From IMG/VR virus record IMGVR_UViG_2617270960_000003, positions 1 to 45,189 of that record: a stretch of 45,189 nt of DNA; one strand, given 5' to 3'. A model generated the notes under the pieces. That model made no database searches, was not told the DNA's origin, and saw nothing but the letters and a program-made list of their open reading frames with translations. This document shows positions 27,578 to 44,005 of this stretch, one piece after another (within the stretch, counting starts at the first letter, position 1; every line of letters starts with the position of its first letter). A program made the translations under genes and the position numbers. The DNA is from a virus. Taxonomy: Duplodnaviria > Heunggongvirae > Uroviricota > Caudoviricetes.

Positions 27578-29431
27578 TTATGATGATGCTGGTGCATTTA
27601 TCTCCAGCACCAGACTTTCTATCTCAACGCCATACGCTGCATTTTTTGTAACATCCGTCAGCGTCAGCGCATTCAGCCCCAGTGTCAGACTGTCTTTTAT
27701 GACCTGGAATGCCGGGCCAGCCACTCCATTCAGTTTCGGAGTAACCGTGGCACTGCCGGCGGTGAACACCAGCTCCAGCGTCTGCCAGTCGTTACCGTAA
27801 TCGCCGAACTCCCCCAGCTTCGTGTTTCCGGCTTTCCTGTGATGCATCAGATTCACTCTGCCGTCAATGGTCTGAGTGAAGTAAGACATCAGGAACGGAT
27901 TACCAGTACCCGTCATCGCCACATCATCAGGAACGGGAGCGTCCGTATACAGATAAATCCCCAGCCCGAACTGATTGTTGGTCAGTGCGCCTGAGAGGCG
28001 GAACTTACAGGTCAGTCTGCCGCCCTGTGTCAGCAGGGTAATTGCGTCATCCACCGGATGCATCAGGTACCAGGTTTTATTGCTCTGCTTGGTGATCTTA
28101 AATACACCCTCTGACAACTGAATTCCGCCATTCTTAATGCTCCAGCCCTGCGCAGCAGCATCTCCGGCTGTCGGCAACAGGGAGATTGTGCGTACGGATG
28201 CATCTTCAGACGGCCCCGATGGCGTGTCGCCGCCGGGCGAGGGTTTGATTTCCGGTGCCTTACCACTAATGAAGGCTAAGGTGCGACCGGCTACGTTCAG
28301 AATAGCAGTTGCCATACGATCGGGAATAATGCCACGACGCGCCCATGAGCTGAAATGCGTCGGGCGATTTGATGATACCCAGTTTTTGTTCGTTCGGGAT
28401 GCCGAACCGTAATAACCAGACCCGACAATATCAGGATCTTCTGACGGGTTGTTTGTCGGTGTATTAACTCCGCTACCATCGGTCATAAAGGGAACAAAAT
28501 AAATCTGCTGGGATTCTTTACCTTTATATGCACCATATACCACTTCATATTGCGTACCGTGTTCTTGTTTCCACGCGTATGTCGTGTCGCCACAAATCCA
28601 GGGGACTGATGCCGGACTTCCACCGTGACACTGCGCCGCCAGCCCGGCAAGGTCAGCACGGAACTGCTGTACCATTGCAAGAAATGCTGCTGGCTGCTGG
28701 GCGTAACTGGCATTCGTCATATCGAATTCCCCCTGCATCCAGCATATCGCCAGCAAAACGTTTTTCGGGTTTTTCTGCAATGCTGCCTTCGTGCGGAAAA
28801 GCAGATCCTGATATAACGGCTTACCCACTCCCCAGCGAGCCGAATCCTGACTGGCCCCCGTGGACTCGCTGAATGTCCCCTCCGTGCCCTTGGTGAATGC
28901 CGAACCACCACGACAGCATGGTACCAGCAGGATCCCCGCATTATTAGGGATATACGGAAGCAGTTTTTTGGCAATATGTAAGCCCTGTCCGACACAACCG
29001 TACTGCCCTTTGCTCAGGTCAGCCCGGGGATGGTTAATCGTACTCATATCCTGAACATCATGCAGACAATGGTCAGCAGGAATGATGTCGTTAAATACGC
29101 ATACTTCGCCACCGGGAGTCACTGTGTTACGACGGGCCAGTTGCTTAATGCGCGGATGGGGCGCATCGTATGAATCCGGAAGCGGAAGCCCTTCACCGTA
29201 AGCCATGGCATTGGACTGCCCGGCCAGTACGATGACGTAGTACCACTCCGGCTCAGTTGCACCACTGACGACCACATCACCTTCTGCTGCAATCGCCTGC
29301 ATCAGGGTATAAGGGGTTATGGCCACCGGACTACCAAACGGCTGCCAGCCCTCTTTCAGTTTATGTGTCAGCTTTTCCGCAAGATCTGACGGCGACGCCG
29401 CCCTGACAACATCATAGTGTTTAAATGCCAT
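27578..29431 (-). CDS. nanS: prophage 9-O-acetyl sialic acid esterase NanS-p (DUF1737 N-terminus plus SGNH/SASA esterase domain), about 617 aa
   Basis: N-terminus MAFKHYDVVRAASPSDLAEKLT.KLKEGWQPFGSPVA matches NanS-p of Stx/lambdoid prophages as recalled; lies upstream of the lysis cassette. Confidence 0.8.
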   Translation of the reverse strand: MAFKHYDVVRAASPSDLAEKLTHKLKEGWQPFGSPVAITPYTLMQAIAAEGDVVVSGATEPEWYYVIVLAGQSNAMAYGEGLPLPDSYDAPHPRIKQLARRNTVTPGGEVCVFNDIIPADHCLHDVQDMSTINHPRADLSKGQYGCVGQGLHIAKKLLPYIPNNAGILLVPCCRGGSAFTKGTEGTFSESTGASQDSARWGVGKPLYQDLLFRTKAALQKNPKNVLLAICWMQGEFDMTNASYAQQPAAFLAMVQQFRADLAGLAAQCHGGSPASVPWICGDTTYAWKQEHGTQYEVVYGAYKGKESQQIYFVPFMTDGSGVNTPTNNPSEDPDIVGSGYYGSASRTNKNWVSSNRPTHFSSWARRGIIPDRMATAILNVAGRTLAFISGKAPEIKPSPGGDTPSGPSEDASVRTISLLPTAGDAAAQGWSIKNGGIQLSEGVFKITKQSNKTWYLMHPVDDAITLLTQGGRLTCKFRLSGALTNNQFGLGIYLYTDAPVPDDVAMTGTGNPFLMSYFTQTIDGRVNLMHHRKAGNTKLGEFGDYGNDWQTLELVFTAGSATVTPKLNGVAGPAFQVIKDSLTLGLNALTLTDVTKNAAYGVEIESLVLEINAPASS

Positions 29432-29691
29432 GGTTCTTTCCACCATCTGAAAAATGATTCTTTAAAATACCTGACATGTAATACAGAAAAAAAACAAAAC
29501 CATACCTTAAATAAAAACCTCATCATCAAGCAGATATGCATGGATAAACTACAAGACGAGATATAAACCACCCTGCATTTAAATAAACAATAAACAACAT
29601 CAGAAAAATAATTCTGCTCTATGGTTTACAATCAAAAATATCATTTATACTTTTCAGAACATCACCAGCAAGGCATAAACAAGGAAACTAA

Positions 29692-30027
29692 ATGAAGTGG
29701 ATTGTGATTGATACAGTTATCCAGCCATCATGCGGAATATCTTTTTCAGTCATATGGAGTAAAATAAAATTAATAATCTGGTATCAATCGGATGCTTTCT
29801 TACCTCCTGAAAGTATATTTACACTGACTCACACAGGCATCATGCTCAATAACAAAGTGCTACCTGTAACCATTTACAACGTAGTGCCATTCAATAAAAC
29901 ATTCTGGAATTTAATCAAAAACAGCCAGGAATGCCCTACAAATACAGATAACGTATTGAATGAATGCTTTAATAACCGTTGCACTCTGCAAATATGTCCT
30001 TATGGACTAAAACAACAAAGTCCATAA
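29692..30027 (+). CDS. hypothetical small Cys-rich protein, 111 aa; AT-rich moron at the stx-equivalent position
   Basis: ORF track; AAGGAA upstream of ATG; very AT-rich; opposite strand to the late operon; no homolog recalled. Confidence 0.4.
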
Positions 30028-30060
30028 GGAGTTTACTCACATCTGACAAAATCAATATAA

Positions 30061-30300
30061 ACAGCCCCTCCGGAGAGGGGCTGGAGAGTGGCGCTATGTG
30101 CCATTGCATGGTGCCGGGTGCCTCCCGGTGAATTCAGTACCAGCACCTGAATCCGCGATTATCCCATATACCTACTCGCTGATTGCCCCTCCGCACAGGG
30201 GGATTCACCATGCGAAATTTTTTAACAAACTTCCCGCTGGCCAGACAATAATCGCCAGCCTGAATTATGAGCAACGTAGCATTTTACGGGAAAACTGTTT
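30061..30300. repeat. copy 1 of a diverged ~240-bp direct repeat beginning with hairpin AGCCCCTCCGGAGAGGGGCT
   Basis: Shared blocks with copy 2: agcccctccggagaggggctg, gcatggtgcc.ggtgcctcccggt.aattcag, gggggattcaccatgcga, ttttaacaaa, cagacaat. Confidence 0.6.
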
Positions 30301-30520
30301 TCTGCAGTAAAAAGGCCCGCCGGAGCGAGCCTGGAAGGATAGCGGTCATGTGATGCCGGTTTCCCGGTAACTCAGCATCGGTATCTGAGTCAACGTTTTC
30401 TCTACTGGGTCATTTCCGATACGTTCCGCCTTCCGGCAGACTTTCATCACGTCAGAAAATATAGCACCCTGAGTAACAGGACAGTACTCAGAATTCAGGA
30501 AACTGTGACACATCCTGCAC

Positions 30521-30760
30521 AGAAAAGCCCCTCCGGAGAGGGGCTGAAGTATAGCCTAATTTCTGTCTGTCGCATGGTGCCAGGTGCCTCCCGGTAAATT
30601 CAGCCTGTCTACTGAATTTGCATGTTCTCTGGATCATACACTTTGCCAGATGCCCCGCCGCTGAGGGGGATTCACCATGCGATGTAATTTTTAACAAATT
30701 CTCCGGCAGCCAGACAATCATCAAGCTGTGGAATTGTGAGGTATTTAAAAATTTCAACGG
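30521..30760. repeat. copy 2 of the diverged ~240-bp direct repeat
   Basis: Same shared blocks as copy 1; on the minus strand each hairpin is followed by a T-rich run (terminator-like). Confidence 0.6.
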
Positions 30761-30915
30761 GTAACTGATACCCTGCTAATCGCCTGATGCTTTCTTTTTC
30801 AGCAACGGGAAAGCAACAACCACCACACCCGCCACCAAAACATCATCAGACAGCACCGACATTATCCGGCTGCTGAAGTCCACCATCACCACCAGAAACA
30901 ACAGGAGTGCAACCA

Positions 30916-30961
30916 CAGCTGCTTAGAAGGCAATTGCTCTGTCCGGCTGAGCTAACAACGC
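30916..30961 (-). pseudogene. tRNA-Arg(UCU)-like 5' fragment (acceptor, D and anticodon arms only)
   Basis: Minus-sense GCGTTGTTAGCTCAGCCGGACAGAGCAATTGCCTTCTAAGCAGCTG resembles the 5' half of argU-type tRNA; no T-arm or complementary 3' acceptor strand downstream. Confidence 0.3.
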
Positions 30962-30975
30962 AGAATACCGATAAA

Positions 30976-31052
30976 TGGACCGCCATCGAGAACTCGAACC
31001 CCGCGCAACCAGCTTCGAAGGCTGGCGCTCTATCCCGATGAGCTAATGGCGG
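30976..31052 (-). tRNA. tRNA-Arg (anticodon UCG)
   Basis: Hand-folded cloverleaf: acceptor CCGCCAT/ATGGCGG, D-stem GCTC/GAGC, anticodon stem CCAGC/GCTGG with loop CTTCGAA, T-loop TTCGAGT (T-stem has two G-U pairs), 3' CCA. Confidence 0.6.
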
Positions 31053-31059
31053 TATGTGA

Positions 31060-31135
31060 TGGTGGCCCTTGCTGGATTTGAACCAGCGACCTGGCGATTA
31101 TGAGTCGCTCGCTCTCACCACTGAGCTAAAGGGCC
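31060..31135 (-). tRNA. ileZ: tRNA with CAU anticodon, ileX/ileZ-like (tRNA-Ile2 or Met)
   Basis: Minus-sense GGCCCTTTAGCTCAGTGGTGAGAGCGAGCGACTCATAATCGCCAGGTCGCTGGTTCAAATCCAGCAAGGGCCACCA; canonical cloverleaf; near-identical to E. coli ileX as recalled. Confidence 0.8.
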
Positions 31136-32702: not shown

Positions 32703-32726
32703 AAAAAACCCGCCAGGCGGCGGGGT
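32703..32726 (-). terminator. tR'-like rho-independent terminator downstream of the late promoter
   Basis: Minus-sense CCCGCC-GCCT-GGCGGG followed by TTTTTTAT, about 45 bp downstream of the predicted start site. Confidence 0.65.
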
Positions 32727-32806: not shown

Positions 32807-33628
32807 CTATCGCGTTACCCTCTTTAACTGCCGCTCCGCCCATGCCTCTTCAATGTCAAACCGAACCACCAACGTATCGTAAAAGCGTTTCACTGATTTT
32901 TTCCACGTATCAAGCGTGATAGCACTCGTCACTTTGCATATGGCATTAAATGCCTCCGTTGATGGCAGCCTTTCACAGCCACGACCACCACAACGCTGGC
33001 AATCTCTGATAACAGGCATACCACGTTTTACCGACTCTTCACGATGAATGGCGACACCACGCCCACGGCAATCCTTACAGGCGGTGGAAACCTCACCCTT
33101 TCCGCCACACTCCGGACAGGCAACTTTTACCACCTCCCTGACTTTTTTCCATTCTTCCCAGTAAGACGGATACACACCTTTCGTACACTTTGCCCATACT
33201 GGCGGCTTGCCATCCGGATACTGAACCTTGTTTGTAAAAACTTCGCTTTCAATAAATTTTTCCCCTCGGCAACAGGGGCACTGCTTTTTACTCGCTGCGC
33301 TGCGGGCATAATCCTCAAAAGCGTACGAAGCCATAATGCGCATCACTACCGGTTTTATTTCTGCCGGAAGTTTTCTCAACGCCGCCACACGATCGCACCG
33401 ACTGAGTGCATATTCTGTCAGCAATTCTGTTGCCCGCTCTCTGTCATTCATACTAATGCCCATTTTCCCAAGGAACGCAGAAAACCCCATCTCAGCCCGA
33501 TTCTGTGTCATGCCCTGCGCGGCCATCACATCAGTGATACTCAGCGCATCTTTCGACGTTGAGGCCGATGCATCAGTCAGGCCGGGGGATTTTGGGGAGT
33601 AGTATTTCGGTAAATCTTCCAGTTTCAT
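32807..33628 (-). CDS. putative late antiterminator Q (QuuQ-like, multiple CxxC zinc-binding motifs), 273 aa
   Basis: ORF track; sits between rusA and pR'/tR'; several CxxC pairs; assignment is mainly positional. Confidence 0.55.
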   Translation of the reverse strand: MKLEDLPKYYSPKSPGLTDASASTSKDALSITDVMAAQGMTQNRAEMGFSAFLGKMGISMNDRERATELLTEYALSRCDRVAALRKLPAEIKPVVMRIMASYAFEDYARSAASKKQCPCCRGEKFIESEVFTNKVQYPDGKPPVWAKCTKGVYPSYWEEWKKVREVVKVACPECGGKGEVSTACKDCRGRGVAIHREESVKRGMPVIRDCQRCGGRGCERLPSTEAFNAICKVTSAITLDTWKKSVKRFYDTLVVRFDIEEAWAERQLKRVTR

Positions 33629-35507: not shown

Positions 35508-35663
35508 TTACTCCTCAGGTTCGTAAACTGTGAAGACAGCGACCTCCGTCTGGCCGGTTCGGATTCGTACCTCGCAGAGGTCTTTCCTCGTTACCAGTAC
35601 AGTCACAATGACGGTTAAACAGATGACGATCAGGGCGATTAACATCGCCTTTTGCTGCTTCAT
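35508..35663 (-). CDS. hok: Hok/Gef family type I toxin, 51 aa
   Basis: MKQQKAMLIALIVICLTVIVTVLVTRKDLCEVRIRTGQTEVAVFTVYEPEE is near-identical to HokD/RelF as recalled. Confidence 0.85.
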   Translation of the reverse strand: MKQQKAMLIALIVICLTVIVTVLVTRKDLCEVRIRTGQTEVAVFTVYEPEE

Positions 35664-35899
35664 AGCCTGCTTCTCCTTGCCTTTCGGCACGTAAGAGGCT
35701 AACCTAGATTTGCCGTTCATAGATTGAGCCTCAGATTAATGTTAAGCGTCTTGCAGGACGCATAATGTTAACTGTGGCTTTTCTCTATCTGCCTTTGGTG
35801 TTCATGCTTGAGGCAGATAGCCTCAAGCACCCGCAGCAATTTTACTTAACTCCCCTTTTCCCACAAATCGTTTTTATCCCTATTGGTAATGTTCTCCCG

Positions 35900-43248: not shown

Positions 43249-43816
43249 TAGCTAACCAACGAAGCTAAGGTTGGTAATTAAGGAGTTCTCCACGGGTGAG
43301 GTGGAGTGCGTGCGCCGGACACGGGTGAGCATCCGGCACTGACAGTTTACTGAAAGGATATTTCCCTGAAAAGTCAGACCATAACGCGAAAGCGCACGGC
43401 GAGGTAGCTGGTTCATAGATAGCCTGTCGTTAAATTTTCGTCGACCGTGCGCTTCCGGTTGTGGCAATCCGCGAAATGGCGCGGCGGTAAGTATGGCGGG
43501 GTTATTCCTTCCACCGTTGAGGACACTGGGTTGTCAGGTTGACCATACGCTTAAGTGACAACCCCGCTGCAACGCCCTCTGTTATCAATTTTCTGGTGAC
43601 GTTTGGCGGTATCAGTTTTACTCCGTGACTGCTCTGCCGCCCTTTTTAAAGTGAATTTTGTGATGTGGTGAATGCGGCTGAGCGCACGCGGAACAGTTAA
43701 AACCAAAAACAGTGTTATGGGTGGATTCTCTGTATCCGGCGTTAATTGTTAACTGGTTAACGTCACCTGGAGGCACCAGGCACTGCATCACAAAATTCAT
43801 TGTTGAGGACGCGATA

Positions 43817-44005
43817 ATGAAAACGTTATTACCAAACGTTAATACGTCTGAAGGTTGTTTTGAAATTGGTGTCACTATCAGTAACCCAGCATTTACTGAA
43901 GATGCCATTAACAAGAGAAAACAAGAACGGGAGCTATTAAATAAAATATGCATTGTTTCAATGCTGGCTCGTTTACGTCTGATGCCAAAAGGATGTGCAC
44001 AATGA
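43817..44005 (+). CDS. hypothetical small protein, 62 aa
   Basis: GAGGA 7 nt upstream of ATG at 43817 (internal start of track ORF 43712..44005); ATGA coupling to next ORF. Confidence 0.4.
   Translation: MKTLLPNVNTSEGCFEIGVTISNPAFTEDAINKRKQERELLNKICIVSMLARLRLMPKGCAQ

Follow-up and report, generated by a model that had tools for sequence, protein, structure and literature searches.

The segment at positions 30053-30741 of the 45,189-nucleotide stretch of Caudoviricetes DNA analysed here (the window) very probably consists of three paralogous small RNA (sRNA) genes of the STnc100 family that lie head to tail on the same strand. The locus is real but ordinary. STnc100 (RF02076, 'Gammaproteobacterial sRNA STnc100') has been known since the Salmonella sRNA screens and is curated in Rfam, so the element itself is already known; synonyms of the family are EcOnc27 in O157:H7 Sakai and sRNA103 in EDL933. 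The additions made by this work are minor. They are the tandem layout of three genes, a diverged middle paralogue that would be missed by standard annotation, and evidence that copy number changes through recombination. The assignment is directly supported by the family membership of the two outer units, their fold, its covariation, three terminators, synteny with stx2-phage and PasD loci, and the recurrence of such arrays in other viral loci.

The repeat units

The preliminary description of this DNA, which was made by reading the sequence, had drawn attention to two diverged repeats of ~240 bp that are headed by the same perfect GC hairpin. The observation of paired hairpin repeats is confirmed and the preferred interpretation, small RNAs with terminators, was largely right. 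The hairpin sequence AGCCCCTCCGGAGAGGGGCT occurs exactly twice in the window (30063-30082 and 30526-30545), and no match with up to 3 mismatches was found in 100 dinucleotide-preserving shuffles. Both hairpins have the 8-bp stem and 4-nt loop that had been described, with the stem extending to 9 bp in the first copy (unit 3). The T-rich runs that were said to follow on the minus strand are also present, and with the tail TTTATATT or TTTTCTGT both hairpins were scored as terminator-like in a terminator scan. The hairpin heads the repeat on the plus strand only; on the minus strand, which is the functional one, it forms the 3' end. Similarity reaches ~190-220 nt past each hairpin with a constant block offset of 466-469 nt, and it includes recurring blocks of 32-35 nt with 80-94% identity. 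The repeats are thus extended and diverged as claimed, but a length of ~240 bp is slightly generous and 219 and 225 nt are closer.

The word 'paired' did not survive. A third, more diverged copy is found at 30306-30510 with its own terminator at 30313-30332, and because this copy sits in the middle of the pair the real period is ~230 nt and not ~465. Units 1 and 3 are 78.7% identical over the aligned positions, and unit 2 is 65-67% identical to either of them. The terminator calls on the minus strand number three, at the three unit ends. The units are numbered 5' to 3' along the minus strand and their parts are as follows. In unit 1 the order is leader (CUCACAAUUCC...), A-rich block, core, linker and terminator.

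30517..30741, minus strand: unit 1 (the second copy of the preliminary description), a full STnc100 gene with a leader to ~30741
30681..30698, minus strand: A/U-rich block of unit 1, UUUGUUAAAAAUUACAUC, conserved family-wide
30572..30680, minus strand: core of unit 1, in which the helix GCAUGGUG/CACCAUGC encloses the hairpins, including the invariant ACCGGGAGGCACCUGG
30546..30571, minus strand: linker of unit 1, GACAGACAGAAAUUAGGCUAUACUUC, a putative seed that resembles the EcOnc27 linker AGUAUACAGAGAUUAGGCAUAUACCAA
30526..30545, minus strand: intrinsic terminator of unit 1, followed by UUUUCUGUG; -17.3 kcal/mol
30306..30510, minus strand: unit 2, the diverged middle copy, which scores below the Rfam gathering score
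30453-30469, minus strand: equivalent of the A/U-rich block in unit 2, UGCUAUAUU
30333-30347, minus strand: linker of unit 2, GACCGCUAUCCUUCC, a putative seed
30313..30332, minus strand: intrinsic terminator of unit 2, AGGCUCGCUCCGGCGGGCCU followed by UUUUUA (in DNA, AGGCTCGCTCCGGCGGGCCT then TTTTTA); -15.6 kcal/mol
30053..30271, minus strand: unit 3 (the first copy of the preliminary description), a full STnc100 gene
30214-30229, minus strand: equivalent of the A/U-rich block in unit 3
30106..30213, minus strand: core of unit 3, from fold and covariation
30083..30105, minus strand: linker of unit 3, AAUGGCACAUAGCGCCACUCUCC, a putative seed and the commonest linker type in the sampled relatives
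30062..30083, minus strand: intrinsic terminator of unit 3 with a 9-bp stem, followed by UUUAUAUUG; -20.3 kcal/mol

The three units share one plan of ~205-225 nt. A leader that begins near CUCACAAUUC is followed by the A/U-rich stretch and by a core of ~110 nt, in which an 8-bp closing helix has three or four hairpins inside. The 3' end consists of a hypervariable single-stranded linker of 15-26 nt and a GC-rich intrinsic terminator with a U tail.

Family assignment

A scan of the whole window with Rfam models matched RF02076 to unit 1 (140.5 bits, 30517-30710, minus strand) and to unit 3 (132.8 bits, 30053-30241, minus strand), in both cases over model positions 1-206. These two units pass the gathering score of the family, which is 47 bits. 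Unit 2 does not pass it alone; it surfaced only with permissive filters, as a match to the full model at 30306-30481 with 30.0 bits and an E value of 2.9e-4. A covariance model of our own was built from units 1 and 3 and was searched against the window, three E. coli loci and 96 viral loci that had been retrieved via a 17-mer from the core. It scores unit 2 at 28.4 bits, and in a three-way alignment units 1, 2 and 3 are all in register. A genome-contig scan with the 17-mer CGCATGGTGAATCCYCC yielded no taxonomic information; nearly all of the matches listed are chance matches (Streptomyces and assorted MAGs).

Other identities were searched for in the same region. AgvB and AsxR (RF02702 and RF02703) gave no match in 29400-31000 at E values up to 10, and the Sakai AsxR locus, used as a positive control, scores 88.1 bits. 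ARAGORN and Rfam found no tRNA-like element in 30053-30741, the tRNAs being confined to 30976-31135. The units do not belong with PasD either: when they are aligned with PasD1 and PasD2, the similarity is confined to the 5' core block, and the linkers in the window do not contain UGUGAG. The preliminary description had stated that its reading would fall if the repeats were fragments of a known IS or gene. They are copies of a known gene family, but the family is an sRNA and not an IS, so this outcome is benign. The ORFs that overlap the units contain no Pfam domain of any kind. In annotated genomes the matches never lie under an IS annotation; they are labelled 'hypothetical protein' or have no feature. 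The inverted repeats that were found are the RNA helices.

Elsewhere in the window, an STnc100-like core without the GC terminator was observed in the dicF-dicB spacer (43640-43849, plus strand), flanked by DicF (43591-43642) and by the start codon of dicB at ~43818. It scores 34.4 bits with the Rfam STnc100 model (E 8e-6 locally, below gathering) and 32 bits with our own model. Its fold has a 16-bp closing helix and the hairpin CCUGG-AGGCA-CCAGG, with a z-score of -4.0. The element is also present in another locus (L207), and no mention of an STnc100-like element between dicF and dicB was found in the papers searched. A hok/sok-type antitoxin RNA is located at 35658-35832 on the minus strand (Rfam sok, 103.3 bits), and strain 10 has an annotated hokD gene at the corresponding site.

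Structure and conservation of the RNAs

Folding of the minus-strand transcripts, one of the checks proposed in the preliminary description, gave a clear answer for the outer units. When folded independently, with the closing helix at the very 5' end, units 1 and 3 have the same minimum free energy (MFE) architecture, with z-scores of -3.03 and -2.96, respectively. Inside the 8-bp helix GCAUGGUG/CACCAUGC, hairpin 1 (CCCCC...GGGG) comes first and is separated by a variable segment from another hairpin, which has 8-9 bp. The next hairpin is CCGGG-AGGCA-CCCGG, with CCUGG on the 3' side in unit 1, and it is followed by the single-stranded linker and the terminator. The closing helix, multi-hairpin core and 3' terminator of STnc100 are therefore all present in the MFE folds of these two units. 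The closing helix of unit 2, ACGUGAUG/CAUCACAU, keeps 7 of the 8 pairs when it is read from the alignment, three of them via two-sided changes relative to units 1 and 3. The MFE fold of unit 2 does not recover this helix, and the structure of this unit is seen in the model alignment only. For the leader, RNAalifold gave no consensus hairpin between CUCACAAUUC and the A-rich block; the z-scores of this segment average -1.05, and several units have inverted repeats with differing arms.

The structure is also reflected in the pattern of substitutions. Standard pairs make up 98.1% of the cells in an alignment of 150 hits (66 distinct relatives), which was fitted to the model and in which the columns of the closing helix and hairpin 1 are biased toward conservation by the retrieval 17-mer that lies in them. 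Among the 66 distinct relatives, 22 of the 31 pairs have changed on both sides. No shuffle matched these values for pairing and covariation, and when the 3' partners were slid by 1-3 columns as a control the paired fraction fell to 41-50%. The option in the preliminary description that the hairpins are terminators or 3' ends of small RNAs is largely borne out in that units 1 and 3 are full-length STnc100 members; they are more than terminators, as a covarying core of ~110 nt precedes the hairpin.

By column entropy over the 66 distinct sequences, four parts are conserved. The A/U-rich block UUUGUUAAAAA is the first. The second is made up of the closing helix and hairpin 1, the third of the 3' arm of hairpin 3, hairpin 4 and the closing helix, and the terminator is the fourth. 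The sequence is hypervariable in two places, namely between hairpins 1 and 3 and in the linker that joins the closing helix to the terminator. The linkers in the window differ from one another (GACAGACAGAAAUUAGGCUAUACUUC in unit 1, GACCGCUAUCCUUCC in unit 2 and AAUGGCACAUAGCGCCACUCUCC in unit 3).

This pattern bears on whether the repeats could be duplicated coding sequence for small proteins, such as the 89-aa ORF at 30488-30757 (minus strand) and the 70-aa ORF at 30098-30310 (plus strand). ORFs of 46-89 aa do overlap the units, and the region is called a 'hypothetical protein' in some phage records and a partial pseudogene in RefSeq. However, the overlapping ORFs have 0 Pfam matches and are out of register between the copies, conservation tracks the RNA helices with compensatory changes, and in RefSeq most of the region has no annotation or is marked as a pseudogene. 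A coding origin of the repeats is hardly credible on this evidence, and the units are better read as sRNA genes.

Location in the prophage

The genes and RNA elements around the array, from the Q gene towards the lysis genes, are listed below.

32807-33628, minus strand: Q antiterminator homologue (PF03589)
32709-32724, minus strand: GC-rich hairpin and T6, 85-100 nt downstream of the Q stop codon
31176-32234, minus strand: DNA methylase
30976-31135, minus strand: tRNA-Met(CAT) and tRNA-Arg(TCG), found by ARAGORN and Rfam
~30935-30975, minus strand: truncated third tRNA, equal to the 5' half of Sakai argO (Arg-UCU) as far as the anticodon loop
30776..30916, minus strand: DUF3927 ORF (PF13064, E 3.8e-18), directly upstream of the array
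29692..30027, plus strand: iraM-like ORF of 111 aa, convergent on unit 3
27578-29446, minus strand: DUF1737/SASA (NanS-type) esterase, followed by lysis and morphogenesis genes

The array has the location that is typical of STnc100, in the lambdoid late region after Q and the moron cargo, before the lysis genes and on the strand of the late transcript. From the gene order, it fills the classic lambdoid 'moron' slot, which has the Q-dependent late promoter on one side and the lysis genes on the other. In Sakai Sp5 the order is ileZ-argN-argO, stx2A, stx2B, STnc100 (207.7 bits), convergent AsxR and esterase, with the STnc100 copy starting 75 nt after stx2B. The position of the array is that of stx2 together with the downstream STnc100 copy in Sp5, and the iraM-like ORF occupies the place of AsxR. 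The corresponding ORF in strain 10 is named 'anti-adapter protein IraM' in RefSeq, and the ORF at 29692-30027 has no Pfam match. Its stop codon is overlapped by a 12-bp perfect hairpin (29997-30030). In E2348/69, PasD1 and PasD2 likewise have this DUF3927 ORF directly upstream.

Two further features of this neighbourhood were observed. The truncated argO-like tRNA, which is uncalled by ARAGORN, diverges after the anticodon loop into the DUF3927 ORF, and it marks a recombination junction inside a tRNA. In Sakai, the terminator that separates argO from stx2A, GGCTCGC-TTTT-GCGGGCC-TTTTT (L244:1030-1055), has the same stem as the unit 2 terminator, GGCTCGC-TCCG-GCGGGCC-TTTTT.

The hairpin at 32709-32724 is probably tR' of the short PR' transcript, where lambda 6S RNA or StxS sits. 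Do the hairpins of the array act only in cis, as a threefold barrier between the tRNA/DUF3927 module and the lysis genes in the lysogen, with the flanking sequences hitch-hiking? There are three strong sites on the strand of the late transcript between the moron site and the lysis genes, and as a tR'-like terminator follows Q, terminators that are overridden by Q are to be expected here. Such a stop has no need of a conserved core of ~110 nt with compensatory changes, and homologues of the units accumulate as stable Hfq-bound RNAs with RIL-seq partners. It is quite unlikely that termination is all that the repeats are for. A terminator role can coexist with that of sRNA genes, but it does not suffice by itself.

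The array can be compared with several known systems. STnc100, EcOnc27 and sRNA103 have the core fold and the terminator in common with units 1 and 3, are on the same strand with respect to the late operon, and likewise lie between the Q/moron site and the NanS-type esterase. The EcOnc27 locus has one unit and a convergent anti-sRNA, whereas the window has three tandem units, and the terminator is AGCCCCUCUCCGGAGGGGCU in the window and GGCCUCUCAUAGCAGGGGCC in EcOnc27. Unlike the STnc100 locus of Sakai Sp5, the array in the window has no stx cargo. PasD1 and PasD2 from EPEC E2348/69 resemble the window in having DUF3927 upstream and esterase or lysis genes downstream, in the 5' core block CGCAUGGUGAAUCC and in overall architecture. 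They score 37.7 (PasD1) and 41.4 bits (PasD2) against STnc100, but the PasD seed UGUGAG and the PasD 3' half are absent from the units in the window. AgvB and AsxR share the same moron-site neighbourhood; Sakai AsxR is convergent and lies 2 nt from the end of the STnc100 copy, where the window has the iraM-like gene instead. Tandem same-strand sRNA paralogues are also found at core-genome loci with defined regulators, namely OmrA/OmrB and PrrF1/PrrF2. Like the units described here, these pairs have a conserved scaffold and terminator with diverged pairing regions. However, their sequences are unrelated, and the units in the window are phage-borne with a copy number that varies between prophages.

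Transcript ends and promoters

Two starts have been placed on homologues of the units. An RNA-seq estimate puts the 5' end of PasD2 (NC_011601:741157) at the G of GCAUGGUG, immediately 3' of the A/U-rich block. With a start at the closing helix, the conserved TGnTAAAAA would be an extended -10 element as read by eye, and unit 2 has a better one by eye, TGCTATATT. For EcOnc27, the Hfq-crosslinked interval in Sakai is 1268411-1268490 (PMC4104026 supplement). This interval corresponds to L244:2412-2491 and covers the A-rich block. The Hfq peak and the band sizes place the 5' end of EcOnc27 55-70 nt further upstream, near the conserved CUCACAAUUCAG; most units have kept this motif, as well as a second element that is TGTTAAAT-like. 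Both starts, the one at the closing helix and the one upstream of it, may exist.

A scan for sigma-70 consensus promoters was negative on the minus strand of the array. Two conserved 'promoters' on the plus strand (TTAACA-16-GACAAT) were rejected as by-products, since the A-rich block and the TTGTCT motif give rise to them when read on the opposite strand. Studies in EDL933 detected RNA-seq reads for 11 of 11 copies without prophage induction, and one copy was confirmed by northern blot (PMC5331693). Binding of RpoD at Salmonella STnc100 copies has been reported from ChIP-exo. The RpoD binding and the expression in uninduced EDL933 point to units that have their own promoters rather than being cut from the late transcript.

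Homologues and possible function

Homologues of the units have been characterized in several strains. EcOnc27 was crosslinked to Hfq (CRAC) and gave northern bands of ~235 and 247 nt, the longer of which is destabilised without hfq (PMC4104026 supplement). PasD1 and PasD2 are abundant, Hfq-dependent RNAs that form RIL-seq chimeras with core and virulence mRNAs, and their seed UGUGAG pairs with CUCACA in the targets (PMC8550237). PasD and STnc100 have been judged to have a common ancestor. Overexpression of sRNA103 raises the fimZ and espA transcripts by a mechanism that is undefined, and a direct target has been established for none of the canonical STnc100 copies. PasD2 has also been reported as the most abundant CsrA-bound chimera partner. 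With regard to a role of the units as a CsrA sponge, the GGA motifs counted by eye (3 in unit 1 and 6 in unit 3) are not clearly above expectation.

The PasD seed maps onto the segment that is equivalent to the linker of the units in the window. The linker of unit 1 resembles that of EcOnc27, whose northern probe is complementary to ...AGUAUACAGAGAUUAGGCAUAUACCAAGGCC. We infer that the linkers are putative seed regions and that specificity lies mainly there. At the other end of the RNA, most units begin with a conserved CTCACAATTCAG (CTCATAATTCAG in unit 3), for example at 30730-30740 and 30260-30271 on the minus strand. The CUCACA at these unit starts is the published target motif of the PasD seed. 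This may be a coincidence, or it may be a hint of cross-talk among members of the family.

Judging from the homologues, each unit would give rise to an Hfq-dependent trans-acting sRNA. In the lysogen, each unit would be transcribed and would end at its own terminator, the RNA would bind Hfq via the A/U-rich stretch and the U tail, and the variable linker would pair with host or prophage mRNAs. Since different linkers are presented on one conserved scaffold, the three units would carry different specificities. In lambda, RNA polymerase that has been modified by Q reads through terminators. If the same general biology applies during lytic growth of this phage, Q-modified polymerase would pass all three terminators, and the array would thus be no block to late gene expression. 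The size of the array would shift via homologous recombination between the conserved core blocks.

Array size and recombination

A search of related prophages had been recommended in the preliminary description, and it revealed that same-strand arrays recur. With our own model, arrays of three to five adjacent units on the same strand were found in ~1/3 of the 96 viral loci, and array size over all of these loci ranges from 1 to 5 units. The array types include that of the window and two other three-unit types with a middle copy like unit 2; runs of four units occur in L175, L185 and L124. Among 5426 complete E. coli genomes, the unit 2 type is present in 673, as two alleles that are 91.5% identical; NCTC86 and strain 10 have a middle unit that is 100% identical to that of the window. 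Of the complete genomes, 657 have 80% or more of the array, and 2868 have some match to the region, at up to 12 places per genome. The region also matches 351 phage records, mostly of Stx-converting phages. A recent preprint describes PasA and PasD copies as dispersed and not tandem, and no description of STnc100 arrays was found in the papers searched.

Two viral loci, L148 (4046-4300) and L192 (10700-10954), have a single chimeric unit whose 5' part is identical to unit 1 and whose 3' part is identical to unit 3. The switch lies inside a shared 19-nt core block, TCGCATGGTGAATCCCCCT. Such a unit is expected either as a recombination product of the outer units or as their single-copy ancestor. 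A different arrangement was observed in L175 (4984-7937; also in L185), where one unit is followed by an AraC-family ORF (241 aa, HTH_18), a 92-aa ORF, four tandem units and the esterase, so that units lie on both sides of the moron.

Could the repeats be nothing but recombination scars or linkers that are kept as homology for swaps of lambdoid cargo and have no RNA product? Crossover within TCGCATGGTGAATCCCCCT in the L148 and L192 chimeras, the units on both sides of the AraC-like moron in L175, the adjacent argO-like tRNA broken after the anticodon and the variation of arrays from 1 to 5 units are all in keeping with this. Homology, however, needs neither covariation nor terminators of fixed orientation, nor hypervariable linkers on a conserved scaffold, and the expression and Hfq binding of homologues are documented. 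We regard a purely recombinational origin as very improbable. The suggestion of recombination scars in the preliminary description is thus not supported as an account of what the units are, but it is correct in so far as the units serve as substrates for homologous recombination, as in the L148 and L192 chimeras. There is limited support for the units as recombination substrates, and this role does not account for the conserved RNA structure. Recombination accounts for the dynamics of copy number among these sRNA genes and not for the existence of the element.

Significance

STnc100 is among the most frequently annotated bacterial sRNA families and its function is still listed as unknown. Sequence variants of the STnc100 copy directly behind stx2 have recently been linked to the clinical outcome of O157:H7 infection. 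Non-Stx lambdoid prophages in ~1/8 of the complete E. coli genomes carry three tandem STnc100 genes with differing linkers. It is tentatively suggested, as a possibility that we consider rather unlikely, that the STnc100 unit is a modular cassette in which a conserved and probably protein-binding scaffold presents an exchangeable pairing segment. Arrays of such cassettes would be expanded, collapsed and shuffled by recombination in the scaffold and would yield new host-directed regulators, much like spacer or variable-region systems, and the terminator-less scaffold between dicF and dicB would suggest an older cis role in mRNA processing or stability. For annotation, caution is needed because the middle copy escapes the Rfam threshold; the current view of the family is unchanged. 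The array is a natural set of paralogues, matched in scaffold and diverged in seed, with which the function of the family may be probed.
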